From positions 112,211 to 176,210 of IMG/VR virus record IMGVR_UViG_3300034082_004296: a stretch of 64,000 bases of DNA; one strand, 5' to 3'. Position 1 is the first letter of the stretch, and each line of letters starts with the position of its first letter. Source of the stretch: a virus. The notes beneath the pieces were generated by a model. It had not been told where the DNA came from and made no database searches. It was given only the letters and a program-made list of their open reading frames with translations. This document shows positions 19,930 to 59,820 of the stretch, piece by piece. Made by a program: the position numbers and the translations under genes.

Positions 19930-20502
19930 ATGGAAGCAAGAATAAAAAGTTTTAGTCAGTTTATTGGAGAGTCTAGGATCTCAGAAAGCCTTCATTATCA
20001 CATCGATAATGGGATAAGCATTGCCGAGTCAGTATTTAGGCCAGGATCGGACTCTCACATTCAACTCCTGACCGAGGCTCGAAAAAGTTTTTATGACGGT
20101 TTACTTATACTTGGAGTGCACGATCGTCGACTATTTGAATCGACTGATCTTGGTCTTACTGGAATATTTAACGGAGTTGTGGTCCCATTAGATCTTCCAT
20201 TGGAAAACATTGACCTTAATGAGGAGAAGTCTCCTCGATTAGGCTATCCTAAGCGGGGAGGAGCCAAGAAATATCACGTTTATGTGAGAAACCCCAAAAC
20301 AAAAAAAATAATTAAGATCGCGTTTGGTGATGTGCATGGAGGACTCACAGCAAAGGTGTCCAATCCAAAAGCCAGAAAGTCATTTGCTGCTCGACACAAC
20401 TGTGCTGAGAAGAAAGACCGAACTAAAGCTGGATATTGGGCATGTCGCATCAATCGCTACGCTCACCTATGGGGCGGAAAAACTTATCCTGGATTTTGGT
20501 AA
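19930..20502 (+). CDS. Putative capsid-internal protein with basic C-terminal domain
   Basis: N-terminal tag IKSFSQFIGE; C-terminal KKYHVYV...FGD...NPKARKSFAARHNC...AGYWAC domain common in large phages. Confidence 0.6.
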   Translation: MEARIKSFSQFIGESRISESLHYHIDNGISIAESVFRPGSDSHIQLLTEARKSFYDGLLILGVHDRRLFESTDLGLTGIFNGVVVPLDLPLENIDLNEEKSPRLGYPKRGGAKKYHVYVRNPKTKKIIKIAFGDVHGGLTAKVSNPKARKSFAARHNCAEKKDRTKAGYWACRINRYAHLWGGKTYPGFW

Positions 20503-21110
20503 TGAAACATCTATTAACATATCAACAATTATTTGAGGATGCGACTCAAGTAGAGTCTATACCTACAGAAAAAACTAAGATATCTGGCGGAGATATCATA
20601 TTTTCTAAAAACAAGACGGCTCCTTTGCTCATGGTCTACGGTGGAATACCGGTTGGCGGAAAACAAAGTGGTGGAGAAAATGGTTACATGTGGAAATATG
20701 TAGATAAACTAAAAAACAAATACCACATATTCGTTGCATCAAACCATAGAGTAGACGGTGATTCTACATATAAAAGCGTTTTACAACAATTAGAAAAATA
20801 TGGAATAAAACCTTCATCAAAAGTACTATATCTTTTTTCTGGAGGATATCGTCCAGGTATGCCCATTTTAAAAAATAAGGCGGCCGATTTTTCTAAAGTC
20901 TTATTAGTTGATATTTGGATGAAGGGCTCAATTATCTCTGATTTTTATACTAAATTTGCTAAAGATAATTCGTCAAAAGTTAAATATTATTACACTGATT
21001 TTGGTGCAAATAATTCAACCGCTCGAGATCTAATCGTCAAGATTGCAAGTACTTCAAAGAAAAAAACTGGTCACATGGAAACTAATGACGATGCTGTTAG
21101 TTCACTATAG
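20502..21110 (+). CDS. Putative capsid-internal alpha/beta-hydrolase-like protein
   Basis: Start reassigned to ATG 20502 (TAATG overlap), giving MKHLLTYQQLFE; VYGG and LYLFSGG elbow-like motif, C-terminal GH. Confidence 0.5.
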   Translation: MKHLLTYQQLFEDATQVESIPTEKTKISGGDIIFSKNKTAPLLMVYGGIPVGGKQSGGENGYMWKYVDKLKNKYHIFVASNHRVDGDSTYKSVLQQLEKYGIKPSSKVLYLFSGGYRPGMPILKNKAADFSKVLLVDIWMKGSIISDFYTKFAKDNSSKVKYYYTDFGANNSTARDLIVKIASTSKKKTGHMETNDDAVSSL

Positions 21111-21126
21111 TAATAGATAAAGAAAC

Positions 21127-21399
21127 ATGAAACTGCCATTTGAAGAGACTCAAATAACCGACGACACTTATATTCGTGAGTTTTCACAAGAGTCCGATGT
21201 TAATGAATTTACCTGGCATAGGGATGATGAAGATAGAATGATAGTCGCGACTGAACCTACTGATTGGAAGATCCAATTAGAGAACAAGTTACCTCAAGGA
21301 TTAAGTTCAACCGTATTTATAGAACGAGGAGAGTGGCATAGATTAATAAAAGGAACAGGTAAGCTTACCGTAAAAATAACAAAAAGCGATAACTCATGA
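21127..21399 (+). CDS. Small cupin-like protein
   Basis: WHRDDEDR...VFIERGEWHRLIKG cupin His motifs. Confidence 0.6.
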   Translation: MKLPFEETQITDDTYIREFSQESDVNEFTWHRDDEDRMIVATEPTDWKIQLENKLPQGLSSTVFIERGEWHRLIKGTGKLTVKITKSDNS

Positions 21400-22085
21400 A
21401 AAACCTATTAAAATACAATCAATTTTTGATTCTAGAACAAGGAACAAATTCTTGCCCATTGGCAACTCAAAATCTTGAGTTAAACACTAAAAATAGGAAT
21501 AAGTCAATAGAGGCAGAATATATTCAATATGGCCCATTAAATTTGAATGATGAAGATTATTGGGCAAGGTACGCTAAAAAATGGAATACTGAGCCTGAAG
21601 TCGCAAAGAAATCTAATTGTGGAAACTGTGTAGCCTTTGATATTTCTCCAAGAATGGAAGCGTGCATGCCTGGTGAAGTCAGTGATCCTGAAGGAAGACT
21701 TGGTTACTGTTGGATGCACCATTTTAAGTGTCACTCTGCCCGTACTTGTTATACCTGGGCAGCAGGCGGACCTATTACAGAAGATCAAGTTTCAGCGGAT
21801 TGGCAAAGTAAAAATGGAGGAGAGGTTAACGAAAAGAGAAAAACCAAAAATTCTCCAGACTGGCACGATTCAGATGCACCAGACGCTAATGGAAAATTCA
21901 AAGAACTTGGAGTAAAGGAGCTAGCTAAATGGTTAATTAGAACTAGGGGTGGAGATATGCGTAAGATTACAGGAAGCTTAAATCAACAGATAGTCTTTAA
22001 CCGAAACGATAATCCAAGTTATGCTAAAAAGATGGAAAGCGTTCGTGCAGAAGTCAAACGACAGTTAGCTAAAAGAAAAAAATAA
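21396..22085 (+). CDS. Putative capsid-internal protein, Cys-rich domain plus basic domain
   Basis: N-terminal tag LLKYNQFLILE; CGNC...C...GYCWMHHFKCHSARTC metal-binding motif. Confidence 0.6.
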   Translation: MKNLLKYNQFLILEQGTNSCPLATQNLELNTKNRNKSIEAEYIQYGPLNLNDEDYWARYAKKWNTEPEVAKKSNCGNCVAFDISPRMEACMPGEVSDPEGRLGYCWMHHFKCHSARTCYTWAAGGPITEDQVSADWQSKNGGEVNEKRKTKNSPDWHDSDAPDANGKFKELGVKELAKWLIRTRGGDMRKITGSLNQQIVFNRNDNPSYAKKMESVRAEVKRQLAKRKK

Positions 22086-22091
22086 AAAGGG

Positions 22092-22556
22092 ATGATTCTT
22101 ACATTTGAACAATACTGTATTCTTGAGAGCAAAAAACAAAAGGCTCATCCTAGAAAATATAAAGCACCAGAAGGAAGCTCTCGAGATAAGAAACTAGATA
22201 AAGCGCAAGACCTACTTAAATCTGGCAATAAAGAAGAGGCATACCGACTTCGAGACGATATGGAGAAAGCCGAACGAGAAAAGAAGGGCTGGAAAAATAC
22301 TCCACGAAAAGACTCTAAAGTAAATGAAGCTAAATCGAATAACTTAAGTAAAGAAACACTTGCTAAGATTAGAGCAGTTGCAACTAAAAAAGGTTATTCA
22401 TTTGCTGATTTAAAACGTGAATATATCAAAGGATTGGGTGCATTCTATTCTTCAGGTTCTAGACCAGGAATGACTGCTCATCAGTGGGCTATGGCAAGAG
22501 TAAACTCAGCAAGTCCAAGTAAATCTTGGGCAAATGTCAAAAAAGTAAAAAAATAA
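22092..22556 (+). CDS. Putative capsid-internal basic protein (DUF5824-like C-terminus)
   Basis: N-terminal tag ILTFEQYCILE; GLGAFYSSGSRPGMTAHQWAMARVNS motif. Confidence 0.55.
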   Translation: MILTFEQYCILESKKQKAHPRKYKAPEGSSRDKKLDKAQDLLKSGNKEEAYRLRDDMEKAEREKKGWKNTPRKDSKVNEAKSNNLSKETLAKIRAVATKKGYSFADLKREYIKGLGAFYSSGSRPGMTAHQWAMARVNSASPSKSWANVKKVKK

Positions 22557-22559
22557 AAT

Positions 22560-23111
22560 ATGTTACTTAACGTAAGACAAAACGGATTTATCTTTAACTT
22601 TCCACCGGACTTTTTTGCGCCTGAAATCAAGGAAAAATACAAGAAATATTATCAGAGTCTCATATTGCCATATGACACGATTGATGAATTTATGTCAGCC
22701 ACGATTCAGTCTATCGACTTTCCTGGATGGACGATGGATCCTGCAACACAGACTCGACTATTTGGTAAACAACAAGAATACAAGAGTTCAAAGCAAGTGG
22801 TAGACTTGTTCACTCGAGAGTTTACCCTGACCTTTAAGCTTACTGATGCATACTTAAATTACTTTATTTTCTTAGAGAACTCTCTAAAATATCTGGATTT
22901 CAATAATAAGAACCAGCCGACGTTTTCTCCTATGCGACTATCCCTATTAGACAATGAGGGATATTTAGTCTCGTCAATCATTTTTAAGAGACCGGTCCTA
23001 AAAAGCCAAGATGGTTTTAAACTATCATATAGTTCATCCACGCCAGACTTTACCACTTTTACTGCAAAATTTGTCTATTTTGATTTTGATATTGAGTTAG
23101 ATTTTAATTAA
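22560..23111 (+). CDS. Tail tube-fold protein (gp19/gp3/gp54-like)
   Basis: IQSIDFPG...REFTLTFKL...LSLLDNEG...FTAKFVY pattern of tube-like proteins. Confidence 0.5.
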   Translation: MLLNVRQNGFIFNFPPDFFAPEIKEKYKKYYQSLILPYDTIDEFMSATIQSIDFPGWTMDPATQTRLFGKQQEYKSSKQVVDLFTREFTLTFKLTDAYLNYFIFLENSLKYLDFNNKNQPTFSPMRLSLLDNEGYLVSSIIFKRPVLKSQDGFKLSYSSSTPDFTTFTAKFVYFDFDIELDFN

Positions 23112-23165
23112 AACTCTCAGTGTATTTCATAGTATATTTTAGTCAAAATAACACTATTTTGACTC

Positions 23166-24056
23166 ATGGCAAAGAAACCCGTAAATAAGTTTTCAGTATT
23201 CCACATCGAAGGAGGTTTAGGAAAACACATTGCTGCGACAGCCGTCGCAAAATGTATCAAAAATAATCACCCAGACCGAGAGCTAATAATCGTCTGTGCA
23301 TATCCAGAAATATTTTTAAACCTATCTTTCGTTGATAGAGTTTACCGGATTGGGAACACTCCATACTTCTATAGAGATTTTATTGAAGGAAAGGACAGCT
23401 TAATCTTTAAACATGAGCCTTATTTCACGACAGATCACATTCATCGTGAGTTACCCTTAATTGAAAACTGGTGCAAGTTATACGACTTAAACTTTTCAGG
23501 AGAGTCGCCTGAACTAGTCTTTAACCTTCGACAGAGACAGTTTGGATTTAAAAAGTGGAACAGATCTAAACCTATTGCTGTGATTCAAACAAATGGGGGA
23601 CCTTTACATGACCAACCCTATCTTTATTCTTGGACTAGAGATATCCCTTATGATATATCAAGTTCATTGGTAAATCAATTGAGTCTAAACTATCATGTGA
23701 TTCAAGTATGCAGGTCACAGGAGCAAGTAATACCTGGAACAGAGGTTATCTCTGAACCAATGTCAAATATGGAACTTCTTTCTCTTCTGCTTTTCTCAGA
23801 AAAGAGAGTGCTAATTGATTCTTCTCTACAGCATGCATCAGCAGCCTTAGGTTTAAAATCAACTGTTTTATGGATAGGTACTTCACCCAAGGTGTTTGGT
23901 TACTCCTTACATTCCAATATAGTAGCAGATCTTCCTAATACTGTGAAACTGCCTGATAGTTATCTATTTGACTACAATTTCAATGGATCAAATCACGAGT
24001 GTCCACTAGTTGATGAAAACATCTTTGATGTTTCAGAAATATTGAACTCCCTATAA
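23166..24056 (+). CDS. Glycosyltransferase, GT9/heptosyltransferase-like
   Basis: GGLGKHI (GLGD-like) N-terminus; IDSSLQHASAALGLKSTVLW. Confidence 0.75.
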   Translation: MAKKPVNKFSVFHIEGGLGKHIAATAVAKCIKNNHPDRELIIVCAYPEIFLNLSFVDRVYRIGNTPYFYRDFIEGKDSLIFKHEPYFTTDHIHRELPLIENWCKLYDLNFSGESPELVFNLRQRQFGFKKWNRSKPIAVIQTNGGPLHDQPYLYSWTRDIPYDISSSLVNQLSLNYHVIQVCRSQEQVIPGTEVISEPMSNMELLSLLLFSEKRVLIDSSLQHASAALGLKSTVLWIGTSPKVFGYSLHSNIVADLPNTVKLPDSYLFDYNFNGSNHECPLVDENIFDVSEILNSL

Positions 24057-24691
24057 TGGATTTTACTCATCGACCCATAAATATCAATGAGTATTTCGAT
24101 AAGATCTTTTACATCAATCTAGATAAGGATGTTCATCGCAATGAGAACCTACTTCAACAGTTTGAAAAGTTTAACATCACAAACTTTGAAAGAGTCACCG
24201 GAGTCAGAGCCATGCAGATTCCAGAAAGATCACAATATCGTAATTTCATAAAATCTGATTCAAAATACATAATGGGTCAGCTTGGGTGCAGGGCTTCTCA
24301 CATATCGGTTGTACAGCTAGCCAAGGCTAGAGGATATTCAAGGATCCTAATACTAGAGGATGATGTCCTATTTTTAGAGGACCCATCATCACTTCTCATG
24401 GCAAACCAATGGTTACATAATGACTGGGACATGCTATATTTTGGCGGATTAGTCGAACCCTTTTTTAGAAACCAAATAGTGTGTGCACACGCGTACGGAA
24501 TAAATTCAAACCTGTTTGATGATATTCTAGAACTTGGCCCAGTGTCTGGCATGGAGATAGATAATTTTTATGCAAAGATAATTCAACACATGAGTTATAA
24601 TCATACGAATATAGGTAAGTATAGAATTAGAATCATCCAGCCATTTAACAAGATAGTCCAGGATAAAAATCACGAATCTAACATTATATGA
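24056..24691 (+). CDS. Glycosyltransferase family 25
   Basis: YINLDK..HR, GCRASH, LILEDD, WDMLYFGG, AHAYGI motifs. Confidence 0.85.
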   Translation: MDFTHRPININEYFDKIFYINLDKDVHRNENLLQQFEKFNITNFERVTGVRAMQIPERSQYRNFIKSDSKYIMGQLGCRASHISVVQLAKARGYSRILILEDDVLFLEDPSSLLMANQWLHNDWDMLYFGGLVEPFFRNQIVCAHAYGINSNLFDDILELGPVSGMEIDNFYAKIIQHMSYNHTNIGKYRIRIIQPFNKIVQDKNHESNII

Positions 24692-25503
24692 AAAAACTAT
24701 TCTTTCAGTCATCATTACCTAGAGCAGGTTCTACCCTTTTGCAAAACATAATGGGTCAGAATCCAGAATTCTATGTGACACCCACTTCGGGAGTCCTAGA
24801 GCTAGTGTATGCTGCCAGAAACAATTACACTAATTCGGCTGAGTTTAAGGCACAGGACACATCCCTAATGAAAACTGGATTTACTCAGTTTTGTCACGAT
24901 GGAGTATTGGGATTCTTTAATGGAGTCACAGATAAGCCTTATGTTTTAGATAAGAGCAGAGGCTGGGGAGTACACTATGGGTTTCTAAACTCTTTTTATC
25001 CGGATCCCAAGGTAGTGTGTATGGTGAGAGACTTGCGTGGAATATTTGCCTCAATGGAAAAAAACTTTCGTAAGAATCCTCACCTTGATTCAGGAATAGT
25101 GAATCACGCTACGATGACAGGCACGACCACTGAGAAGAGAATAGATGTTTGGTCATCGGGTCAACCTGTAGGGCTTGCAATAGAAAGATTATATCAGATA
25201 TTTAAGGAGGGCATTGATAAAAAGATGCTCTTTATCAAGTATGAGGATTTAGCCAAGAATCCTGAACCCGAAATGAGGAAGATTTATCAATACTTTGAGC
25301 TTCCTTATTTTAGTCATGATTTTGATAATATTGAGCAGATAACTCAAGAAGACGATTCCGTATATGGAATATATGGCGATCACAAGATTCGTAAAAAGCT
25401 AGAGCCATTGAAATCTGATTATAAAGAAGTATTAGGCCAAGAAGCCTGTAACTGGATCAAGAATAAATATAGATGGTTCTATGATGAATTTAAGTATTAT
25501 TAA
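24688..25503 (+). CDS. Sulfotransferase
   Basis: LPRAGSTLL (5'-PSB loop), DKSR, MVRDLRGIFAS (3'-PB), IKYEDL. Confidence 0.85.
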   Translation: MKKLFFQSSLPRAGSTLLQNIMGQNPEFYVTPTSGVLELVYAARNNYTNSAEFKAQDTSLMKTGFTQFCHDGVLGFFNGVTDKPYVLDKSRGWGVHYGFLNSFYPDPKVVCMVRDLRGIFASMEKNFRKNPHLDSGIVNHATMTGTTTEKRIDVWSSGQPVGLAIERLYQIFKEGIDKKMLFIKYEDLAKNPEPEMRKIYQYFELPYFSHDFDNIEQITQEDDSVYGIYGDHKIRKKLEPLKSDYKEVLGQEACNWIKNKYRWFYDEFKYY

Positions 25504-25504
25504 A

Positions 25505-25981
25505 CTATTCAGTTGGACTCGATGCCAATTGATCGATCGCAATAATTAAACTATCAACATTGCCTTTAATATTTTCTGAAATAGTTAGATATGGAATCCC
25601 AATCTGTTGCTTAATATTTTCTCTAACTGGCAATGTTAAGTTACGTAATATTCTTTCACGTAGTCCTTTTTCTTTATCTGGAATAGTTCTAAATGTCATT
25701 TCATTATTGTAAAATTGAGTAAATATTATTTCTCGAGAATTTCCTATTGGCTCAGGCTTGGGTCCTTCTTTATCAATCTCAAAAGCAGTTCTTGGATTAA
25801 GAGATTTTAAATACTCATTCAAGTCAGCTAGGATAAGTGAATTACTATTACTTAATTCAACATACCTTTCTAGATTTACTGAATAATTGATTGATCTTGA
25901 CTTTACTACATACTTTGCAATCCAGCCTTGACTCTGTTTAATTATCATTAATGAATCGAATGAGGGTACTACTTCTGCCAT
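25505..25981 (-). CDS. Hypothetical protein
   Basis: 158 aa ORF at the end of the minus-strand fibre operon. Confidence 0.55.
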   Translation of the reverse strand: MAEVVPSFDSLMIIKQSQGWIAKYVVKSRSINYSVNLERYVELSNSNSLILADLNEYLKSLNPRTAFEIDKEGPKPEPIGNSREIIFTQFYNNEMTFRTIPDKEKGLRERILRNLTLPVRENIKQQIGIPYLTISENIKGNVDSLIIAIDQLASSPTE

Positions 25982-26000
25982 CTAGTTTTTATTTTTTTAA

Positions 26001-27089
26001 TTATGGAACAAAATACAGCCTATTTGAGTCAGTCGAGCAATAATATACTGATTTTGGCGGTAGACCGGCCGACCCGTCTTGTAAGTTCATGATCGAGAGT
26101 TGGTTTACAAATGTTGCACAAGACCTATTTGCAGTGATATTGCTTCCAACGATCATTGCTCGTGGACAGCCACCATCGCTATTTGAGTCTCCTCCAGCAA
26201 TTATTGAATATCCTCCACTTGCAGTGTTGTTAAAACCGCCTGAAATAGTTGAATATCCTCCACTTGCAGTGTTGTTAATACCGCCTGAAATAGTTGAATA
26301 TCCTCCACTTGCAGTGTTACTTGTTCCTCCACCGATCGTTGCTGAATAGTATCCGCTTGCCGTGTTATTTCTACCACCTGCGATGGTTGAATAGTTACCG
26401 CTTGCAGTATTGCTAGAACCGCCTCCTATTGTTTCGTTTCCATAATATGAGCTAGCTGTATTTGAAAATCCTCCGCCGATTGTTGAAAGGCCATAGTATG
26501 AACTAACTGTGTTTCCATATCCTCCGCCTATCGTTGAATAGTAAGAGCTCGCAGTATTAACAACGCCGCCGCCAACGCTAGAACCTATTCCGGATGCAGC
26601 ATTAGAATAACCACCGCTAACAGTCGTTGCGATATTTGCTGCAAAGTTATTATATCCTCCGCTAACAGTAGTATAATCAGAACTAGCAACGTTTAGTGCT
26701 CCGCCGGATACGACTGCGTAATATCCGCTTGCAGTGTTTGTAAATCCTCCACCGACCGTGTTTAAATCATTATTGCCTGCAGTGTTTCCATATCCTCCGC
26801 TAACAGTCGAGGCATATCCGCTTGCAGTATTGTCATATCCGCCGCTAACCGTTGAATAGGTTGAGCTTGCAACATTTGAATTATCTATTCTATACGTTGA
26901 TCCTGCGCCTGCACCTTCACTAACCGCTCCAGCTCCTTCAAGAAGCGTAATCGTACCTGCTGAGTCTATTTTTTTTAGTGCTCCTGCGTCGTCGAGATCA
27001 AAACCTATAAAGTAACTCCCTGCCTCTATTTGAGTGTAGTCAAGTGATGAAAACGAGACTTTAGGCATCTCCATTCCAGATCCGTACAT
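26001..27089 (-). CDS. Beta-helical (YadA-head-like) fibre/adhesin protein
   Basis: ~15 repeats of ~15 aa (NTASGxYSTxxGGxx); late box at 27105-27113 (-). Confidence 0.7.
   Translation of the reverse strand: MYGSGMEMPKVSFSSLDYTQIEAGSYFIGFDLDDAGALKKIDSAGTITLLEGAGAVSEGAGAGSTYRIDNSNVASSTYSTVSGGYDNTASGYASTVSGGYGNTAGNNDLNTVGGGFTNTASGYYAVVSGGALNVASSDYTTVSGGYNNFAANIATTVSGGYSNAASGIGSSVGGGVVNTASSYYSTIGGGYGNTVSSYYGLSTIGGGFSNTASSYYGNETIGGGSSNTASGNYSTIAGGRNNTASGYYSATIGGGTSNTASGGYSTISGGINNTASGGYSTISGGFNNTASGGYSIIAGGDSNSDGGCPRAMIVGSNITANRSCATFVNQLSIMNLQDGSAGLPPKSVYYCSTDSNRLYFVP
26204..26318. repeat. Near-perfect 45-bp tandem repeat (~2.5 copies)
   Basis: TTGAATATCCTCCACTTGCAGTGTT starts at 26204, 26249 and 26294; encodes NTASGGYSTISGGxN. 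Confidence 0.9.
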
Positions 27090-27118
27090 GTTAGTCCTTT
27101 TATTTTATTTATCTTGAT

Positions 27119-28300: not shown

Positions 28301-28314
28301 AATTTTCTTATTTT

Positions 28315-30189: not shown

Positions 30190-30195
30190 GGCTCA

Positions 30196-32589: not shown

Positions 32590-32598
32590 AGTTGCTAC

Positions 32599-34263: not shown

Positions 34264-34264
34264 C

Positions 34265-49111: not shown

Positions 49112-49121
49112 AAGACCCTTC

Positions 49122-49379
49122 TTGAAAAAAATACTTTCTTATTCAGAATATTTAAGCGACTCTCTAAAGGAGTCGCTTGATCCATTTGTAGAAAAAAGAT
49201 CAAAGTTTAGAATAGGTGACCAAGTAAAAGTTAAGGATCGAGTAGGTAAGGTGACAGCAATCGATAAAAAGCACTATCTTGTCCTAATTCAAGGCAAGAA
49301 TGAAAGAGTCGCTGAAGACCAAATCGAAGAGATGGGTCCAATAAAGAAAAAGAAACAGCCGACTAAAAATAAAAGATAA
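49122..49379 (+). CDS. KOW/SH3-like basic protein with capsid-targeting-like tag
   Basis: TTG start, MKKILSYSEYL...LKE; FRIGDQVKVKDRVGKV. Confidence 0.55.
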   Translation: MKKILSYSEYLSDSLKESLDPFVEKRSKFRIGDQVKVKDRVGKVTAIDKKHYLVLIQGKNERVAEDQIEEMGPIKKKKQPTKNKR

Positions 49380-49402
49380 AAGTTTTATTTTTGAGTTTTT
49401 CA

Positions 49403-49411
49403 TAGTATAAT
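49403..49411 (+). promoter_or_regulatory. Putative -10 element TAGTATAAT
   Basis: Upstream of 49431; same motif as 37242. Confidence 0.45.
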
Positions 49412-49430
49412 AGCTAAAAATTATATTATT

Positions 49431-49706: not shown

Positions 49707-49723
49707 TCAATAAATACTTTTAA

Positions 49724-50524: not shown

Positions 50525-50537
50525 GATCAAATAATTT

Positions 50538-50570
50538 AAAAAAGGGCATCTAACTAGGTGCCCTTTTTTT
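50538..50570. terminator. Intrinsic terminator, potentially bidirectional
   Basis: A6-GGGCATCT-AACT-AGGTGCCC-T7 hairpin. Confidence 0.85.
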
Positions 50571-50607
50571 ATTTAAAACCTCACAAACGACTTTAAGTAA
50601 ATATTAT

Positions 50608-51672: not shown

Positions 51673-51730
51673 GTTACACTAGATTAAAATAAGGTCGGTC
51701 TTATAAATAATAAAAAAAGCTGGCCCTTTT

Positions 51731-53029
51731 ATGAAACTTTTATTTTTAATCGTATTCCTACTTGGAATTTCAAGCATTGTTAACTCGCAATGTAACCAAT
51801 ATCAAATCTACGAAAGTTTTACAGGTACCTTACCGACACAAGGTGGAACTTGGACTGCTAATTCAATGATAGCAGTAACCTCTCCAGTACGTACTGGAAC
51901 CCATGCAATTGGATTTAATGGTTCAGGCGATTGGATCAGAACTCCACAAATGGCTAGTCCAGGAATATTAAATTTTTGGTACAGAAGAAGCTCTAATTCT
52001 ACTGCATGGACGCTAAATGTTCAGACTTCACCAAATGGAACCACTTGGACTACTAGAGGTTCAATTACCACAGTCACTACTACGTATCAACAGTATACCC
52101 TAAATATTGGAGCCCTTAGTCTAACTAATATTTTTATTAGGTTAATTGATGCTAGGTCCTCTGGTGCACATGAAAGATATGTTGAAGACTTATCAATAAC
52201 TTCAACAGCTGCATCGTCTAACATTTTACTTCCTATCCTAGGATCATGTACTCAGACTCTCAACTCAAGTCTAACATATAACTTAGCTGATGACGGTGGC
52301 CCAGCCGGGCCTATATCGACTGGGTATAGTAACAATGTTGATCGTACCCTAACTCTCACTCCATCCGACAATACACTAAAACTACAGTTATCATTTACCC
52401 AAATGGATCTAGAGACCAGTTATGATTATCTATATGTTTATGATGGACCAACTACTTCTGCTACTCTTTTGGCAACACTAAACGGAACAGTCATACCTTC
52501 TGACATAACTGCGACGAATTCGACAGGTCAACTCACGATCCGATGGACTAGCGATGTCTCTAACATAGGAGCTTGGGGAGGATTTATGGCTAGTGTAAAG
52601 TCAATATCTGTTGTGCCGTTACCTGTTGAATTACTCTATTTTGAAGGTGATGTATATCCCTCTTTTAATAGCTTGAAATGGGCGACAGCATCAGAGCAAA
52701 ACTCTTCACATTTTATCATTGAGCGTTCAACTGACGGATATTATTGGAGAGAGATAGTAAAAAAGCCAGCCGCTGAAAATTCTAATCAGCTCATAAATTA
52801 CTATTACTTGGATAATATCGAAGATTTTGTTTTGCATTATTATCGATTAATTCAATGTGATATTGATGGAACGAATATGATATATGGACCGATCGCTATA
52901 GATAACCGTGAAAAATCAAAAAAGGTGGTCAAGTGGATTAATATGTTTGGTCAAGAGGTTAGCGAATACGAAAACGGAGTGATCTTTATAGTATATGAAG
53001 ACGGATCAACTAAAAAAGTGATCCGATAA
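51731..53029 (+). CDS. Secreted CUB-domain protein with Bacteroidota T9SS-cargo-like C-terminus
   Basis: Signal peptide; CUB (LSFTQMDLETSYDYLYVYDG...WTSDVS...GF); PLPVELLYF...WATASEQNSSHFIIERSTDG; C-terminal NMFGQEV...IVYEDGSTKKV; late box TATAAATAA 51702-51710. Confidence 0.8.
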   Translation: MKLLFLIVFLLGISSIVNSQCNQYQIYESFTGTLPTQGGTWTANSMIAVTSPVRTGTHAIGFNGSGDWIRTPQMASPGILNFWYRRSSNSTAWTLNVQTSPNGTTWTTRGSITTVTTTYQQYTLNIGALSLTNIFIRLIDARSSGAHERYVEDLSITSTAASSNILLPILGSCTQTLNSSLTYNLADDGGPAGPISTGYSNNVDRTLTLTPSDNTLKLQLSFTQMDLETSYDYLYVYDGPTTSATLLATLNGTVIPSDITATNSTGQLTIRWTSDVSNIGAWGGFMASVKSISVVPLPVELLYFEGDVYPSFNSLKWATASEQNSSHFIIERSTDGYYWREIVKKPAAENSNQLINYYYLDNIEDFVLHYYRLIQCDIDGTNMIYGPIAIDNREKSKKVVKWINMFGQEVSEYENGVIFIVYEDGSTKKVIR

Positions 53030-53054
53030 GATAAATAATAAGAAAGATCTATTT

Positions 53055-54887
53055 ATGTCAAATATAACTCTAACTGAGAGTCAAGCTCAACAGTTCAGAA
53101 TGTTTAATTCAGTAATTGAATCAGCTGAACCTAGACTTTCAAGCATTCTTACTTTTGATAACCTAGTAAACGAAGCACATGCTTTGAGAGTAATTGAATC
53201 AAATATTCCAGAAAGCTTAAAATTTGATCTTCACCTTGATATGATTTTAAGAGACGGCAGCCGAAACGTTGCTGATTACTATAAATCAATGTCAAACGGA
53301 ACTAATTACATATTGGAAGCTGCTAGAAAAGTATTTCCAAATGACTCAAAGATAACTGAATCTATCGAAAGTTTCAAGGAATATATGGTCTCCATGTTAA
53401 ATGAAGACGCATTATCATTAGGCAATCCTATTATGTCTGCTGGTGGAATTGATACTGCTCTAGCCGGTGGACCTCTTCAACCAAGAGCAGGTAGCGGTTT
53501 TTGGTCAGTTCTCAAAGGCTTATGGAATGCAGTTACTGAAGGCGGATCTCTTATAGGAGTCGTCCATTTTATCATTGATATTGTTGGACTCTTTGGTGAT
53601 TTTATTTTTCCTGGAGTCGGAGTATGTGCTGACCTTATTAATGCTGCAATATATGCTATTCGTGGAGAGTGGATGCTATGTGCAATCTCAGTAATTGCAG
53701 CTGTTGTGATAGGTTTTGGTGACGCTCTTAAATTAGTTAAATTTGCAGCCAAACCTGCTGAAAAAGTAATGGTCGCTTGCGCTAAGGGTCAAACTAAAGA
53801 GGCTGCTGAGATGATGGCAAAAATGAGTGCTAAGGAGAGTGGAGGAGTCATAAAAATTCTTACACAAATCTTTGGAAATATTGGAGGTGCTCTAGGAAAA
53901 GCAACCTCACTTATTGGAAAACTGACACAAGGTATTGGTAAAGTAGTAGATTATATTCCAGGACTAGGTGCGCTTTTGAGACCAATATTCGATGGGATAG
54001 GAAAAGTCCTTACTAAGTTTGGGGAAAAAATGTCACTAGGTAGTGCCACCTTTAAACTAGCAACAACTTCAGCAAAAGAGGCTGCTGCCGTTACTATTCA
54101 TCAAGCTTTAAAAGGAGGCGGTGACATTATATTTGATGGTTCATGGGTAAAGGTAGTCAATAAGGAAGGCAAGCAAGTAGGAAAGTACCCATTCAAACAG
54201 TTTGAGAAGATAAGCGCTGATGAATTCATGGAAGCTGCAGTAAAAAAGGCTGGCGATCGAGCAAGTGCTCGAATCTTATATAAGAATGGTAAAGATTATG
54301 CTAAGGTCACCAAGACTCTTGAAAAAGACGCAGTTCAAGATTCTATGAGAAAAAGAGCATTTGAATATTTCGGTACTACTGCTTTTTGGAAGGGATCAAA
54401 GAGAATGTATAAAGACTTTATGTTTTTTGTCGGTAAGCAGATCTATAAGATAATATTTAAGACTGATTGGGTTGACGGTGCAAATAATAAATGGTCAGAA
54501 AGAGAAGTCGGGGGCCATGGCAACGGTGCATTCAACCATTGGATTGACAATCGGATAAAGGATGAGATGGATGAGAAAGGAGCAGTATACTTGCCTGCAT
54601 TGGACTTAGACTCAGAAGATCAAGAGGTTGTCGACAAGGTCACTGAATACCAAAACCATTATGCTAAACTTTACGGTCAACCTACAATCATGAATGTTGT
54701 TACCAAGACATATGATAAGGAAGGGGCCACCAAAGAATATGCAGCCTTTTTTGATGATATCGCATCTGGAAAAGTTAAGAGGGGCGGGACTGGTGATAAA
54801 GTTGACCACTCAATATCTGATACTCTTACTGAGGGTCGTGCGCCAATTGTAAAAAAGATAATGAATTTTTCAGATTTTAACCGATGA
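53055..54887 (+). CDS. Putative capsid-packaged membrane-inserting protein with pre-toxin-TG-like segment
   Basis: N-terminal xxE[SA] sites; HFIIDIVGLFGDFIFPGVGVCADLINAAIYAIRGEW; C-terminal IMNFSDFNR tag; late box 53030-53038. Confidence 0.55.
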   Translation: MSNITLTESQAQQFRMFNSVIESAEPRLSSILTFDNLVNEAHALRVIESNIPESLKFDLHLDMILRDGSRNVADYYKSMSNGTNYILEAARKVFPNDSKITESIESFKEYMVSMLNEDALSLGNPIMSAGGIDTALAGGPLQPRAGSGFWSVLKGLWNAVTEGGSLIGVVHFIIDIVGLFGDFIFPGVGVCADLINAAIYAIRGEWMLCAISVIAAVVIGFGDALKLVKFAAKPAEKVMVACAKGQTKEAAEMMAKMSAKESGGVIKILTQIFGNIGGALGKATSLIGKLTQGIGKVVDYIPGLGALLRPIFDGIGKVLTKFGEKMSLGSATFKLATTSAKEAAAVTIHQALKGGGDIIFDGSWVKVVNKEGKQVGKYPFKQFEKISADEFMEAAVKKAGDRASARILYKNGKDYAKVTKTLEKDAVQDSMRKRAFEYFGTTAFWKGSKRMYKDFMFFVGKQIYKIIFKTDWVDGANNKWSEREVGGHGNGAFNHWIDNRIKDEMDEKGAVYLPALDLDSEDQEVVDKVTEYQNHYAKLYGQPTIMNVVTKTYDKEGATKEYAAFFDDIASGKVKRGGTGDKVDHSISDTLTEGRAPIVKKIMNFSDFNR

Positions 54888-55732
54888 AATTAAAAAACTT
54901 TAAGAGTTACTCTGAATACTATTCAAAGGATCCAAATAACTTTGAAAAAAAGATAGCCCTAGCATCATCTGGTAGCCAGCACCCTCTATTTGAAAACTTT
55001 TCCACGTTTGATGACGCAATAACTGCTACAAAGTCCGTGCCCGTAATAATTTGGGGAAACTTTAGGTTTTCAAGCATGAACGAAAATTTTTGTAGTGTTG
55101 TCTATAATCAGGGAAATATTCCTTCAAAAAAGGAGATATCGACTGTCTTCAAGGAAGAGGATTTTGTACCAAAGGTAGTAAAGGATAGGTCTTTAATAAA
55201 AAAGATGAGCTTTCCGATCACTGGAGTTTTTGGAGAAGAGGAAGAAGACTTTAAAACATATGGACAGTTTAAAAAGTCCGAGAGATTTTTTGATCACTTT
55301 AAGGAGAAACTTGTACCTACGTCTAAATTTGAGGTGCTAGCAGTCGACGGTAAACCCGTACATGCACATAAGAAGATAATTAATAACTCATTCGATATTG
55401 ATCTTACTCGATGGAAACATTTAGGGGAGGCAGAATCAATCTGTAAAAAGATCCATTCTAAGTATTCTCCCGATTTTTATGTGGTCTCTCTGCTTGAAGC
55501 AAATGGCCAACTTTACCTAGATTCGATAACTAGAAACATTGACCTCACCCCAGTACAGAGTGTAAGGTTATACGAGGCAGCCTATCGAAAATATTATGAG
55601 ACTGATTTGCCTTACTGGTTTAGAAAAAAGGTTTTTGAGGATCACGTAAAGCCATATTATATCAAGAAGTACTATGATTCTCTGCTAATTAAGCCGACTG
55701 GTACAATCGACTATGAAAAATACTTAAACTAA
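54884..55732 (+). CDS. ATP-grasp (RimK-like) fold protein, apparently catalytically degenerate
   Basis: FVPKVV...MSFPIT, FKEKL...KFEVLAVDGK, PDFYVVSL...GQLYLDSI follow the ATP-grasp layout but lack the K, ExR, D and ExN residues. Confidence 0.45.
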   Translation: MKLKNFKSYSEYYSKDPNNFEKKIALASSGSQHPLFENFSTFDDAITATKSVPVIIWGNFRFSSMNENFCSVVYNQGNIPSKKEISTVFKEEDFVPKVVKDRSLIKKMSFPITGVFGEEEEDFKTYGQFKKSERFFDHFKEKLVPTSKFEVLAVDGKPVHAHKKIINNSFDIDLTRWKHLGEAESICKKIHSKYSPDFYVVSLLEANGQLYLDSITRNIDLTPVQSVRLYEAAYRKYYETDLPYWFRKKVFEDHVKPYYIKKYYDSLLIKPTGTIDYEKYLN

Positions 55733-55920
55733 TGCTGATCATTAATTGTAAGGGTAAAAAGATAGAGTGGGTTCTTAAGAAATACAGACAACGAGTAGAC
55801 TCTACTGGACAGTTGGATGAGCTTAGACAGAGAAAGGAGTTTGAAAAACCAAGTGTCAAAAAGAGAAAAATAAAGCAGAGAGCGCAATATAAATCTAAAA
55901 ATAACGATGCTAAGATTTAA
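55732..55920 (+). CDS. rpsU: Ribosomal protein bS21 (Bacteroidota-type)
   Basis: MLII...IEWVLKKYRQRV...LDELRQRKEFEKPSVKKR bS21 signature. Confidence 0.9.
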   Translation: MLIINCKGKKIEWVLKKYRQRVDSTGQLDELRQRKEFEKPSVKKRKIKQRAQYKSKNNDAKI

Positions 55921-56401
55921 AGACTTTTTAAACGAGCGATGGGGCAAAGACATGTTACCTAAAGATAGAAGAGCGGCTGGCGTAGCAATCGTTTGGGAAA
56001 ACCGAATACTTTTGGTCCATCCAACAAATTCTTCCTGGAAAAAAGCAACATGTGGAATACCCAAGGGAAAGCTTGAACCTGGTGAGGATCCAGTGTCTGG
56101 TGCTCTTCGTGAGCTTGAGGAAGAGACAGGAATAGTATTGGACGAGAGCCAGCTTGACCCGGAATCGAATAGCGTTGATTTCTATAATGCAAAGGGAGAG
56201 CCTGATGGGTCCTTAATCTATTTTGTATGTACAATATCTGATCTTGCTGAAATAGGTCTGGATTCAGATCGTGTGCCTAAGGGCCAACTCCAGCTAGAAG
56301 AGGTGGATTGGGGAAAGTTTGTTAGTGCTGAAGAAGCATATCCAATATGTACTAGAAACCAGCTAATCATCCTAGATCGGCACATTACTTTGAATAAATA
56401 A
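55907..56401 (+). CDS. Nudix hydrolase with capsid-targeting-like tag
   Basis: Nudix box GKLEPGEDPVSGALRELEEETGI; N-terminus MLRFKDFLNE. Confidence 0.9.
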   Translation: MLRFKDFLNERWGKDMLPKDRRAAGVAIVWENRILLVHPTNSSWKKATCGIPKGKLEPGEDPVSGALRELEEETGIVLDESQLDPESNSVDFYNAKGEPDGSLIYFVCTISDLAEIGLDSDRVPKGQLQLEEVDWGKFVSAEEAYPICTRNQLIILDRHITLNK

Positions 56402-56421
56402 CTAAAACATCCGATATTTTC

Positions 56422-57765
56422 GTGAGACCTTTAAACTTTAATACCTGGAATTCTTTAAATGAGACTGTTGCATTCGATCCCAGTGCAAACTATCCAGACA
56501 AGACATTTGGTTATGCTTCCGGTTCAGTCGATGCAGCTAAAGTAGTTGCCGGCGGCGCTGGAGGAAATTGGGGCGGGTCCATGTCAAGAGCACTATGGTT
56601 TGCTCGAGTAGCCGATGATTGGGCCAAGGCCAATGGAAAAACCGGATCACTAATTACTTCTCAAAAAAGATCTAGACAAAAGACTGATTCAGGCAATACA
56701 TCAGACCATTATGAGGGCAATTCGGATGCATATGCAGTCGATATCGCAGCTGCTGGTGCTGAAGGAGACGAGATACTTGCGTATATTATGCAAAAGTTTG
56801 GATACCCAGAATATAAAGGAGGTTCATGGTTTAACATAACAATCAATGGTTATCGATACCAGGTAGGCTGGAGAGTCAAAAACCATTTTGATCACATCCA
56901 TGTAGGGGTAAAAAGAGTAGTTGGCGGAAAGGATACCCCGACTGGAAAAAAGGGAACATTTGGTGAAAAGATGGCGAGTAACTCAGAAGTAGTTGCATGG
57001 TTTGCTAAGCATGCTTCGAATGTCACACTGAGTGGCGCTTTCATTGATAACCTAATAAAGGATGATCCTGAAAAGCCTAAGAAACTAGAATGGTTTAAGA
57101 AAAAATTCAATGTCACTGATTTAGGTGATCCAGTTAAACCTAAATCATCTAATGATATTGTAATAACTGCACCTGATTGGTGGATATCAATGACTAAAAA
57201 AGTAATAGATAATTTTGAAGGCGGTTATTGGAATCATTGGGAGTGTAAAAATCATCCATATTCAGCAATGTATGCAAATTCTGGAGAGACCTTATTTGGC
57301 TTAGACCGGAAGGCTGGCCAAATAGAGAAGATTTGCCCTGCCGGTAAAAAATTCTTTGCAATTATTGATGGAGAAAAAGCAACACTAAAGGATAAGTTTT
57401 GTGAAGTATGGAAATATAACTATCGTGGCGGAAAGTTAGAGGACGAATTAAAGCTTCTTGCTGCAGAAACGATGTGGTTCTCATACAATGCAAATATGGA
57501 AGCTTTTTCAAAACATCCGGAAACTAAGAATAGGATTGAAAAAAATAAGGGCTTGGTTTTACACATGTCATATGCTTGCTGGAATGGTCCAGGATTCTTC
57601 CAAAAGTTTGTCAAAGCTCTTGAAAAAGGGGTAAAAGAGGGAAAATCAGACAAACAACTCATTGAGATTGCTAAGACTACTAGAGCAGCCGCTCTGTCAG
57701 GTTACTGGGCAAAAGGATCAGCTACTGTAAATAAGTTAATTGATAAAGAGGCAGGGCTCGCATAA
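56422..57765 (+). CDS. Two-domain peptidoglycan hydrolase candidate (M15/LAS-type Zn peptidase plus lysozyme-like GH108-type domain)
   Basis: SDHYEG...AVDI...HFDHIHVG; FEGGYWNH...SGETLFGL; GTG start after late box 56393-56401. Confidence 0.65.
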   Translation: MRPLNFNTWNSLNETVAFDPSANYPDKTFGYASGSVDAAKVVAGGAGGNWGGSMSRALWFARVADDWAKANGKTGSLITSQKRSRQKTDSGNTSDHYEGNSDAYAVDIAAAGAEGDEILAYIMQKFGYPEYKGGSWFNITINGYRYQVGWRVKNHFDHIHVGVKRVVGGKDTPTGKKGTFGEKMASNSEVVAWFAKHASNVTLSGAFIDNLIKDDPEKPKKLEWFKKKFNVTDLGDPVKPKSSNDIVITAPDWWISMTKKVIDNFEGGYWNHWECKNHPYSAMYANSGETLFGLDRKAGQIEKICPAGKKFFAIIDGEKATLKDKFCEVWKYNYRGGKLEDELKLLAAETMWFSYNANMEAFSKHPETKNRIEKNKGLVLHMSYACWNGPGFFQKFVKALEKGVKEGKSDKQLIEIAKTTRAAALSGYWAKGSATVNKLIDKEAGLA

Positions 57766-57826
57766 TTTCAAACTATTTTAAAACTTTATCCAAGACATTG
57801 AGTTTAATATTCTAAAATTAAACATT

Positions 57827-58315
57827 ATGTCTGAAGAAAAAACAACAACCGAAGAACAAGAAGTATTGATTGAAGAGACTCAAGATGCCATGCCAGAAGG
57901 AGTACATTTCTTAGAGGAACCTCAAGCAGAACTTAGTGAATTAGATGCTGCCATTCAAGCTAGAATGGGACATTTTCCAATTGAGATCTCGCCAGCAGAT
58001 CTAAAATACATTAAGAACCTACTAAACAATAAGATCGAGTGGAAAGGGCCAAACGAAGCATACTTGATGCTAATGTCACTTCTTTCTATCTCTAGCGAGC
58101 TTAAAGAAAGAGATTCTCAATCAAACGAAAGAGTGTCAATACACCTTCCTTCTACTACTCTTGAGTCAATCAACTTTTTCTTAAATCGAGTTACTGGTAA
58201 GGGTGAAGAATCTGCACATAGATTATTTGCAGTATCTATGTTGCTTCGTCCTGCAATGGAGCAAATTAAAAAACTTGACGAAGTTATTGAAAAATTACAA
58301 TCTGAGGAAAAATAA
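57827..58315 (+). CDS. Hypothetical protein
   Basis: 162 aa, acidic N-terminus. Confidence 0.6.
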   Translation: MSEEKTTTEEQEVLIEETQDAMPEGVHFLEEPQAELSELDAAIQARMGHFPIEISPADLKYIKNLLNNKIEWKGPNEAYLMLMSLLSISSELKERDSQSNERVSIHLPSTTLESINFFLNRVTGKGEESAHRLFAVSMLLRPAMEQIKKLDEVIEKLQSEEK

Positions 58316-58353
58316 ATCATTACTTAGATAAATAATAAAAAAGTTTATTAAAG

Positions 58354-58719
58354 ATGAAAGTAAAAAACTTTGCAGGGTTTATGAAAACTCGCAGAATGAA
58401 CGAAAGCGACGGCATGGAAGGTGCTGAAGACACTGGATACGGAACTAATCCTGAAGAAGAAATGAACATGGGATATTATGGGTATGGCGCCAATCCTGAA
58501 GAAGAGGAAGAGCCTGCTGAAGGTGAAGAGGGAGAAGGTGAAGAAGGAGCAGAAGAGGAATTAACTCTTGAAGACCTTAAAGCCATGATCGATGACCTAA
58601 CTGAGAGAGTTAAGAAACTTGAACCAGAAGAGGAAGGTGAAGAGGGAGAAGAAGGTGAGGAAGGTGAGGAGCCTGCTGAAGGAGAAGCTAAACCTGCAGA
58701 AAAGGAAGCCAACATTTAA
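58354..58719 (+). CDS. Highly acidic putative prohead core protein, paralog 1
   Basis: Tag VKNFAGF...MNE; Glu/Gly tracts; EELTLEDLKAMIDDLTERVKKLE; late box 58327-58335. Confidence 0.6.
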   Translation: MKVKNFAGFMKTRRMNESDGMEGAEDTGYGTNPEEEMNMGYYGYGANPEEEEEPAEGEEGEGEEGAEEELTLEDLKAMIDDLTERVKKLEPEEEGEEGEEGEEGEEPAEGEAKPAEKEANI

Positions 58720-58740
58720 TTAAAAGCGTATCATACACTT

Positions 58741-58768
58741 AAAGCGAATGGAAACATTCGCTTTTTTT
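58741..58768 (+). terminator. Intrinsic terminator
   Basis: AAAGCGAATG-GAAA-CATTCGCTTT followed by T tract. Confidence 0.9.
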
Positions 58769-58800
58769 GTCAAGATAAATAACAAAAAATAAAATATATT

Positions 58801-59064
58801 ATGTCTGCAAAAAAATTTAATAATTTTATGAAAATCGGCCGTTTAATTGAATCTCAAGATGGAATGGAAATAGGATATTTTCCAAAACCAGAAGACTGGT
58901 CTAAGGAAATGAGCAGATCTGCCAGTATTTATGGAGCAATGGATGAACCTGAAGAGTTAACCTTAAATAGTCTTAATTCAAAGATTAATGATTTAGAATC
59001 AGAAATAGCTAGGCTATCATCAAGACTTGAACAATTAGAATCTAATGGGAATAACGATTATTAA
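58801..59064 (+). CDS. Putative prohead core protein, paralog 2
   Basis: Tag KKFNNF...LIE; EELTLNSLNSKINDLESEIARL; late box 58774-58782. Confidence 0.55.
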   Translation: MSAKKFNNFMKIGRLIESQDGMEIGYFPKPEDWSKEMSRSASIYGAMDEPEELTLNSLNSKINDLESEIARLSSRLEQLESNGNNDY

Positions 59065-59374
59065 TTTTGATCAATTCGTAACTTCCATTAAAACTAACGA
59101 AAATTCAGACCTTGACTGGAGCGATAAGAATTGGGACGAAGCGGGCATGGATGCCGAAAATCCACCTAACTCTGGTCTGGAAGGAACTAGCGCAGAAACA
59201 ATGGATTATACTGCAGGTGACTATGGAGAAACCAGTGATGAAGTAGAAATTGAGGAAGATGAGACTGAGGTTGATCGTACAGCCAAATCTAAGGAGGAGA
59301 CCGATATGATAAAAGCCTTAATTGACGACCTTACTGATCGTGTATCAAACCTTGAAAAAATAAAACAAACGTAA
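59045..59374 (+). CDS. Acidic putative prohead core protein, paralog 3
   Basis: Tag IINFDQF...TNE; MIKALIDDLTDRVSNLE. Confidence 0.55.
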   Translation: MGITIINFDQFVTSIKTNENSDLDWSDKNWDEAGMDAENPPNSGLEGTSAETMDYTAGDYGETSDEVEIEEDETEVDRTAKSKEETDMIKALIDDLTDRVSNLEKIKQT

Positions 59375-59382
59375 TTTCTTAA

Positions 59383-59820
59383 ATGTGTCAGTTAATAAGA
59401 GTAAAGAGCATTCCTCTTTTTGAGGAATATTGTAGAAAAAACGATATCGATGGTAAAGAGATAGAAGCGATTGTATCTGACATCCCATTAAAATTAAAAG
59501 TTGCTTCAACTCAACAGAGCCAAATTAAGGGTTATAGTGGAGCCATGGACGAACCTTCTGAAAATACTGGGATGCTTTTTATATATGATGACGATCAGCC
59601 TCTTTCTTTTTGGATGAAGGACGTCAAGTTTCCTCTAGACATCATCTTTTTTGACAGCTATATGCGATACATTGACCACCATACAATGGATCCAGGAAAT
59701 GACGTAGACGAGAAAGACCTTCCGCAATACCATTCTAAAGAACCTGCAAGATTTGCAGTAGAACTTCCTGGCGGTTGGTGCGAAAAAAACATGACACCAG
59801 ATTGTAAACTTTCCTTTTAA
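59383..59820 (+). CDS. DUF192-family protein
   Basis: GMLFIY, FWMKDVKFPLDIIF, VELPGG. Confidence 0.85.
   Translation: MCQLIRVKSIPLFEEYCRKNDIDGKEIEAIVSDIPLKLKVASTQQSQIKGYSGAMDEPSENTGMLFIYDDDQPLSFWMKDVKFPLDIIFFDSYMRYIDHHTMDPGNDVDEKDLPQYHSKEPARFAVELPGGWCEKNMTPDCKLSF

Follow-up and report, generated by a model that had tools for sequence, protein, structure and literature searches.

In the T-even phages, the internal head proteins are diverse and the capsid-targeting sequence (CTS) is the only part that they have in common (PMC3012670, PMC9026906). In T4 this propeptide is 10-19 residues long (PMC9026906), and in the CTS of the internal protein IPIII targeting depends mainly on residues 4 and 7, whereas processing depends on residues 8 and 10 (PMC9026906, section 2.6). 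The T4 sequences that we fetched begin with MKTYQEFIAE in IPII and IPIII, just as a preliminary description of the DNA studied here had stated, with MKTFKEFT...ITE in IPI and with MLKEQLIAEA in the scaffold protein gp22. In the giant phage SPN3US, only 8 of ~50 head proteins are processed (PMC5694885). Here we analyze the last 64 kb (the window) of a single 176,210-bp IMG/VR virus contig, IMGVR_UViG_3300034082_004296, in which a short N-terminal motif, the tag, is attached to many otherwise unrelated proteins. We favor, with a probability of roughly 0.7, the reading that these tags are cleavable prohead-targeting propeptides, a variant of the T4 CTS. Positions refer to the window unless given as genome positions, which refer to the whole contig.

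The N-terminal tag and its bearers

When its start is restricted to residues 2-13, a strict pattern, [FYW]xx[FYW]x0-6[ILVM]xE, matches 24 of the 208 proteins of the whole 176,210-bp contig (25 of 213 under a second gene call), whereas shuffled N-terminal 30-mers yield 3.0 +/- 1.7 matches with a maximum of 9 in 1000 shuffles, and the internal match rate predicts 3.2. The enrichment over shuffled N-termini that the preliminary description required is thus borne out. A tight 7-mer, [FYW]xx[FYW][ILVM]xE, is found 30 times in the 56,738 residues of the proteome: 12-13 matches lie within the first 20 residues of a protein, eight lie in one protease-scaffold protein, and the remaining ~10 correspond to the chance level (9.8 +/- 3.0 upon whole-protein shuffling of the whole proteome). 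Beyond chance, the motif is confined to protein N-termini and the scaffold only.

Curated alignment brings the number of tagged proteins to 37 in 176 kb, ~17% of genes, and their tags end 6-23 residues from the protein start. As read from these sequences, the tag consists of two aromatic residues three apart and, behind them, a hydrophobic position, one that takes any residue, and Glu, [FY]xx[FYW][ILV]xE. The first aromatic position (Φ1) is F/Y in 28 of 33 codon counts and the second (Φ2) is F/Y/W in 30 of 33, and [ILVMF]xE directly follows this core in 33 of the 37 curated tags, the exceptions being 54884 and 59045 in the window and genome 23330 and 26210. Asn is strongly favored at P2 (…INE), and both a longer (ΦxxWxx[LV]xE) and a shorter (YxxL[FY]E) subtype occur. 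The hydrophobic P3 is encoded by 13 different codons and Glu by GAA 19 and GAG 14 times; this diversity at conserved positions indicates that what is constrained is the peptide rather than the nucleotide sequence, and a nucleotide-level explanation of the motif was therefore rejected.

The four conserved positions coincide exactly with the targeting residues 4 and 7 and the processing residues 8 and 10 of IPIII. With T4 as a specificity control, the scan returned only internal proteins, and the tight pattern also matches T4 gp23 at FGSFLTE, residues 59-65. Maturation of gp23 removes its first 65 residues (PMC9958956), and the match ends at this known cut. Furthermore, the genome encodes a Peptidase_S77 prohead protease (PF03420, E 1.2e-12), a Gp23-type major capsid protein (PF07068, E 3.8e-36) and a T4-type portal (PF07230, Portal_T4, E 1.1e-63). 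The S77 domain is 29% identical to T4 gp21 (PDB 5JBL), with the HP and SSR blocks aligned, which we take to hold the catalytic His and Ser of gp21. Among the hallmarks of a CTS system, this genome thus shows an extreme N-terminal position, targeting residues, processing residues, the S77, Gp23 and portal proteins and unrelated bodies.

Three related IMG/VR contigs (G001, G002 and G003, the studied contig being G000) were fetched whole for comparison, and their proteases are 91%, 59% and 70% identical, respectively, to that of G000. N-terminal matches again exceed expectation, at 19 vs ~2.6 in G001, 17 vs ~2.1 in G002 and 15 vs ~2.1 in G003. The tag is retained in 26 of 36 homologues, with substitutions that preserve the pattern; ahead of one conserved body, for example, KTYHQYINE is replaced in orthologues by QTYHQFITE, KSYQEFINE and KSYSDFINE. 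The Nudix protein at 55907 (Pfam NUDIX, E 3e-14) provides the deepest sample, in that 119 of its 120 best metagenomic homologues (54-94% identity) bear the tag, with F in 119/119, F/Y in 119, I/L/V in 118, Asn in 101 and Glu in 118, and a linker of 7-14 residues, variable in both length and sequence, separates the tag from the conserved Nudix core. T4 NudE lacks such an extension, and a Nudix search in five related contigs gave no match, which carries no weight because these contigs are fragments.

The genes of the window that bear the tag, or an N-terminus resembling it, are listed below (lengths in amino acids, aa; pI, isoelectric point).

19930-20502, plus strand: tagged protein, 190 aa; tag at 19930-19971 (MEARIKSFSQFIGE); mature pI 9.8
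20502-21110, plus strand: tagged protein, 202 aa; tag at 20502-20537 (MKHLLTYQQLFE, Y-x-x-L-F-E subtype), conserved in orthologues
21396-22085, plus strand: tagged protein, 229 aa; tag at 21396-21437 (MKNLLKYNQFLILE), kept in 11/11 orthologue N-termini
22092-22556, plus strand: tagged DUF5824 protein, 154 aa; tag at 22092-22127 (MILTFEQYCILE)
49122-49379, plus strand: tagged basic protein, 85 aa, TTG start; tag at 49122-49172 (MKKILSYSEYLSDSLKE), strong by sequence
54884-55732, plus strand: 282-aa protein with the F..Y core only (MKLKNFKSYSEY); doubtful or uncleaved member
55907-56401, plus strand: tagged Nudix hydrolase, 164 aa; tag at 55907-55936 (MLRFKDFLNE), variable linker, NUDIX at residues 21-117
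56422-57765, plus strand: tagged protein, 447 aa, GTG start; tag at 56422-56463 (MRPLNFNTWNSLNE, long subtype)
58354-58719, plus strand: tagged acidic protein, 121 aa; tag at 58354-58404 (MKVKNFAGFMKTRRMNE)
58801-59064, plus strand: tagged acidic protein, 87 aa; tag at 58801-58851 (MSAKKFNNFMKIGRLIE)
59045-59374, plus strand: 109-aa protein with an F..F core and conserved Glu, without hydrophobic P3 (…FDQFVTSIKTNE)
59383-59820, plus strand: DUF192 protein, 145 aa; N-terminal ...IPLFEE out of tag register, a weak instance
59849-61150, plus strand: ATP-dependent DNA ligase, 433 aa (Pfam DNA_ligase_A_M, OB_2); N-terminal LREFVNE

The twelve N-terminal peptides quoted in the preliminary description are all identical to those encoded here, and nine of them are solid instances; 59045 has a variant cleavage site, while 54884, which lacks the site, and 59383, which is weak, are doubtful. 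Its count of about 12 was too low, since at least 24 further tagged genes lie outside the window and, inside, the ligase at 59849 also matches. The tag of 19930 (PHROG 7595, annotated as of unknown function) is kept in all 24 distinct orthologue N-termini, that of 22092 in 11/13 (the other two look like wrong start calls), that of 56422 in 10/12 and that of 58801 in the single orthologue found. For 58354 the pattern fits 8/12 orthologues and NFAGFMKTR..NE is conserved. Orthologues of 59045 conserve the core and the NE before NSDLDW at variable spacing, and this protein is a probable member with a variant cleavage site. The [ILV]xE site is present in 0/7 orthologues of 54884, in which the NFKSY core is conserved, and the pattern fits 1/11 orthologues of 59383, whose DUF192 domain (E 1e-18) starts at residue 37. 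LREFVNE of the ligase is found in 10/10 orthologues; the whole protein is 85-99% identical, however, and this conservation therefore does not discriminate between a tag and a part of the enzyme.

The bodies are unrelated, as had been claimed: with the first 25 residues removed, the 37 tagged proteins fall into 36 BLASTP families. A few neighboring genes have near-identical tags (genome 16122/17304 and 68205/70866). Re-use of bodies is seen for 20502, whose body is homologous to the C-terminal part of a 518-aa G003 protein (75950-77506; 38% identity over 184 aa) bearing a different tag subtype (MGVLLNYKNWKRLYE), and this therefore points to cargo domains being split, fused and re-tagged in a modular manner. 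Several of the domain labels given earlier to the bodies of the window are putative: Pfam backs only NUDIX (55907), DUF192 (59383, weak tag) and DUF5824 (22092) there, and the fold search adds a lysozyme-like domain for 56422. The C-terminal domain of 56422 (residues 249-447) adopts a lysozyme-like fold in an AlphaFold2 (AF2) model (predicted local distance difference test score, pLDDT, 74), for which VIA-align ranks at the top SagA muramidase (Z 9.0), chitosanases, the VgrG3 effector domain, GH24 and the P22 and T4 lysozymes, Z values up to 9.0 being moderate for a helical domain. Foldseek of the same model against the PDB gave no match at E <= 0.001, and the ESM Atlas gave weak leads only (scores below 0.9), for 56422 also toward a lysozyme-like fold. 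Outside the window, tagged bodies include Phage_lysozyme2 (genome 11511) and PG_binding_1 (genome 36236). Tagged bodies, enzymes included, reach 655 aa, and their mature pI is bimodal, with about half of the proteins strongly basic, as the internal proteins of T4 are, and the others acidic. PHROGs provided almost no matches for the presumed structural genes or the tagged proteins.

Tag-like heptads also occur inside proteins: FNQFVNE (genome 20746-21516, residue 196), FESYVNE (genome 21524-22330, residue 105), FSKFINE (genome 23330-23920, residue 135), FTRFINE (genome 75328-76032, residue 113) and FKKYINE (window 7581-13022, residue 1417). These may be internal cleavage or docking sites, or may be due to chance, as ~10 chance matches are expected genome-wide. 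The idea that extra internal (L/V)NE sites make the tagged proteins polyproteins was rejected, as [ILVM]NE occurs 1.38 times per 1000 residues in tagged proteins vs 1.47 in others (P = 0.63). The tagged genes at genome 16122 and 17304, whose near-identical tags read MSNILNFKNWL..., each face, in convergent orientation, a gene for a putative lipoprotein-like exported protein (MKKLV..LLIGTF...):

Genome 16776-17219, minus strand: lipoprotein-like exported protein
Genome 17878-18297, minus strand: lipoprotein-like exported protein

Tagged genes also tend to have a common upstream element. The most enriched upstream 8-mer of the genome is ATAAATAA, with 49 of its 68 copies no more than 60 nt upstream of genes, often as GATAAATAACTAAAA and ~25 nt ahead of the start codon, and the extended promoter-like motif reads [GA]ATAAATAA(C)TAAAA. 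The T4 late promoter is TATAAATA, which this box resembles. ATAAATA is present within 60 nt upstream of 22/36 tagged genes vs 30/177 others (odds ratio 7.7, p = 2e-7), in agreement with the earlier claim that most tagged genes lie under late boxes. The same element stands ahead of the protease-scaffold gene and of large structural genes. The box ATAAATA(A) is a putative late promoter. The window contains the following boxes, the first four of them ahead of tagged genes:

19914-19922, plus strand: late-promoter-like box AATAAATAA, heading the 19930-22556 gene row
56393-56401, plus strand: late-promoter-like box AATAAATAA, upstream of 56422
58327-58335, plus strand: late-promoter-like box GATAAATAA, upstream of 58354
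58774-58782, plus strand: late-promoter-like box GATAAATAA, upstream of 58801
806, 16957, 19915, 32573, 42543, 47389, 53031, 56394, 58328, 58775 and elsewhere: promoter-like motif

The other tagged genes of the window are located downstream, within the same gene rows as the boxed 19930, 56422, 58354 and 58801. A weakly sigma-like gene of 132 aa (genome 109555-109953; Sigma70_r2, E 0.0015, which falls short of the Pfam cut-off) is a candidate counterpart of gp55.

The protease-scaffold protein and its repeats

The eight tight matches that do not lie at protein N-termini or at the chance level belong to the prohead protease itself, which is fused to a scaffold:

Genome 55509-57485 (L003:15509-17485), outside the window and directly upstream of the capsid gene: S77 protease-scaffold open reading frame, 658 aa

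The S77 domain occupies the first ~230 of the 658 residues, and the rest is scaffold-like. Residues ~295-445 form a tandem array of ~11 units of 14 residues, [IV]xYxxY[LVI]xExLNxS, eight of which match the tight tag pattern vs 0.11 expected from shuffling. Nineteen relatives, with identities as low as 50%, retain this array, and the protease-scaffold is the top protein by tight matches in G001, G002 and G003, with 8, 8 and 6. AF2 models the repeat region as one long helix, residues 291-434 (~140 residues), with pLDDT ~45-55.

Since the motif exceeds chance only at N-termini and in the scaffold, its distribution suggests that each tag acts as the equivalent of a single scaffold repeat. A more specific and tentative proposal, which we hold to be somewhat less probable than even, is that the tag is a detached scaffold repeat, that each protease-scaffold offers ~11 docking sites and that a 7-9-residue code would make any gene product head cargo, to be freed by the fused protease. 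Protease-scaffold fusions are likewise found upstream of the capsid genes in the huge phage LR756500 and in Tenacibaculum phage pT24, and these proteins have only 1-2 motif copies each. Directly upstream of the protease-scaffold gene is a DnaJ-like gene (J-domain; genome 54455-55462, L003:14455-15462), called from its N-terminus only, and GroEL- and GroES-like genes, also called from N-terminal sequences only, are located at genome 101936-103561 and 92424-92723.

The phage, its relatives and further observations

The contig, which comes from an uncultured phage, is ~70% complete according to CheckV, so the full genome is probably ~250 kb. INPHARED phage records contain no DNA similar to it. 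The nearest major capsid proteins are those of huge uncultured phages (37% identity), followed by those of Lak Prevotella phages (31-34%) and of Flavobacterium, Tenacibaculum and Chryseobacterium phages (27-30%). Because an INPHARED DNA match is absent and capsid identities are only 27-37%, the phage represents a distant T4-like lineage and not a T-even relative; its head genes are not closely related to those of T4, as membership of the Straboviridae would demand. Judged from these relatives, its host is probably a member of the Bacteroidota.

Other phages with a T4-like capsid protein were scanned as well. The Gp23-type capsid protein of Flavobacterium phage MaF61 is not accompanied by any enrichment of the tag (1 match vs 1.8 expected in the 150 kb scanned), and the 40-kb capsid-gene neighborhoods of LR756500 and pT24 contain zero N-terminal matches, a sample too small to exclude the system there. 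On this sequence evidence, the expanded tag system is so far demonstrated in this clade only.

A second common N-terminus, MSFINWGHESPEQ..(K/R)AR...FEQ...AAAAA, is shared by four or more proteins that otherwise differ, one being encoded just after the capsid gene and two behind a late-type box, and this family may be another addressing or assembly module:

L001:2757-3329: member of the second N-terminus family
L001:3348-4256: member of the second N-terminus family
L001:14327-15148: member of the second N-terminus family
L003:19641-20000 (genome 59641-60246): member of the second N-terminus family

Also behind a late-type box, window 51731-53029 encodes a 432-aa protein that combines a CUB domain (Pfam E 1e-6) with an N-terminus resembling a signal peptide, which is unusual in a phage.

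Explanations of the tag and known systems

If the tags are cleavable prohead-targeting propeptides, the tagged proteins would be made late, alongside the structural proteins, and the short amphipathic tag would dock on the prohead core, where the protease-fused scaffold would present its ~11 motif-bearing 14-residue repeats. After shell closure, the S77 protease would cut behind the Glu of tags and scaffold repeats alike, thereby dismantling the scaffold and freeing the mature cargo inside the head, and the cargo would then exit with the DNA at the next infection. We infer the packaging, cleavage and ejection of the tagged proteins by analogy with T4, and the docking of tags on scaffold repeats is likewise a proposal.

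Several observations weigh against this scheme. Docking cannot be shown by the AF2 model of the protease-scaffold, whose confidence is low (pLDDT 51). The tag of 49122 is of all tags the closest to the scaffold repeat unit, and when a weight matrix was derived from these repeats, which are Tyr-rich with [LV][AS]E, this tag ranked second and was the sole N-terminal match among the top 60; as no other tag is recovered, the likeness between tag and repeat is at the level of residue class and not of sequence. The internal proteins of T4 are basic, whereas about one in two of the mature proteins here is acidic. The ligase 59849, 54884 without its cleavage site and the DUF192 protein 59383 are unlikely or uncertain cargo. 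The DnaJ-like gene beside the protease gene and the GroEL- and GroES-like genes, furthermore, leave room for recognition of the tag by chaperones.

The alternative closest to the propeptide scheme is that the tag marks substrates of the prohead protease that mostly serve in assembly only, as accessories of the core or scaffold in the manner of T4 gp67 and gp68, and that would be degraded or expelled during maturation and not delivered. That the motif also fills the scaffold itself would fit, as would several small and very acidic tagged proteins resembling gp67/gp68 (genome 31436, which adjoins the portal gene, and window 58354, 58801 and 59045), and T4 core proteins are indeed cut to small peptides (PMC9958956). 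However, internal [ILVM]NE sites are not commoner in tagged bodies, which therefore do not seem designed to be degraded, many of these bodies are themselves enzymes or folded domains (NUDIX, Phage_lysozyme2, PG_binding_1, the lysozyme-like fold), and a variable linker lies between tag and conserved body, as expected of a removable address label. We consider this alternative unlikely.

Less probable again is a signal unrelated to the capsid, such as recognition by the phage DnaJ-like or GroEL/GroES chaperones, a late-stage degron or a localization signal. The J-domain gene directly upstream of the protease-scaffold gene and the GroEL- and GroES-like genes, by their N-terminal readings, speak for it, and the basic residues followed by a hydrophobic core in the tag presumably resemble Hsp70-binding peptides; such a signal would leave unexplained, however, the invariant Glu two residues past the hydrophobic position, the tandem copies in a scaffold fused to an S77 protease and the agreement with the residues that serve targeting and processing in T4 (PMC9026906). 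That the motif is a by-product of AT-rich gene starts, paralogue ancestry or a nucleotide-level translation signal is hardly credible: the genome has a G+C content of 36%, its N-termini abound in K, N, F, Y, I and E, and some neighboring genes have near-identical tags (16122/17304; 68205/70866), but composition-keeping shuffles give 3 matches vs the 24 observed, the bodies form 36 BLASTP families, codons vary at conserved positions and orthologues alter tag residues yet keep the pattern.

Proteins injected with the DNA are a phage's earliest weapons against host defenses and are known for a few cultured phages only. If the tags are cleavable prohead-targeting propeptides, a short and statistically clean tag would make it possible to predict injected proteins across an entire clade of large, uncultured phages, and sequence would probably reveal much of this cargo. 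For the Nudix protein alone, over 100 metagenomic homologues bear the tag. On the same condition, the motif-repeating scaffold would offer a testable docking model for the recognition of the CTS by the core, and a minimal cargo code with its matching protease-scaffold would be a candidate capsid-loading tool in Bacteroidota systems. If, furthermore, the tag is a detached scaffold repeat, a widespread clade of uncultured Bacteroidota phages would deliver 35-40 or more proteins with its DNA, including Nudix proteins and cell-wall hydrolases; as a set of proteins addressed by a single short code, this cargo would be the largest, and it would be readable from metagenomes and would explain in structural terms how the core is recognized by a T4-type CTS.

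Compared with the T4 CTS, the tag is likewise an N-terminal peptide of 10-19 residues. Aromatics occupy the equivalents of IPIII positions 4 and 7, whereas the equivalents of positions 8 and 10 hold a hydrophobic residue and Glu, respectively, and one relative reads SYQEFINEA vs TYQEFIAEA in T4. As in T4, unrelated bodies have only the tag in common, and the S77 protease, Gp23 capsid protein and portal are encoded in the same genome. Unlike T4, with three internal proteins and Alt, there are ~37 tagged proteins here, their bodies reach 655 aa and include enzymes, Asn is preferred at P2, and the protease and scaffold form one polypeptide with ~11 tandem motifs, whereas T4 gp22 is without such an array. 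Encapsulin cargo-loading peptides are similar in that a short portable peptide sends unrelated enzymes into an HK97-fold shell, but they are usually C-terminal, bind the shell directly, remain uncleaved and have no link to DNA packaging or delivery. T7 core proteins such as gp16 are ejected and have cell-wall hydrolase domains, without a cleavable CTS or a T4-type protease; the likeness is in cargo function only, in that several tagged bodies are peptidoglycan-related (genome 11511 and 36236, window 56422).

The phages phiKZ, 201phi2-1 and SPN3US are also large and have many internal head proteins (~50 in SPN3US), and their gp21-related protease cuts after Glu to remove propeptides thought to be prohead-targeting (PMC5694885). 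Their propeptides, however, are mostly longer than 100 residues, have an A/S/G-x-E site and possess no common aromatic core, whereas here a single short code of 7-9 residues is re-used. The literature on capsid-targeting sequences that we searched, which lacks most subscription journals, covers T4, SPN3US and P1 and describes no expanded repertoire in Bacteroidota phages. What is new in the present system is thus its scale (~17% of genes), its distance from T4, its large and enzymatic bodies, the fusion of protease and scaffold, and the tandem motif array.

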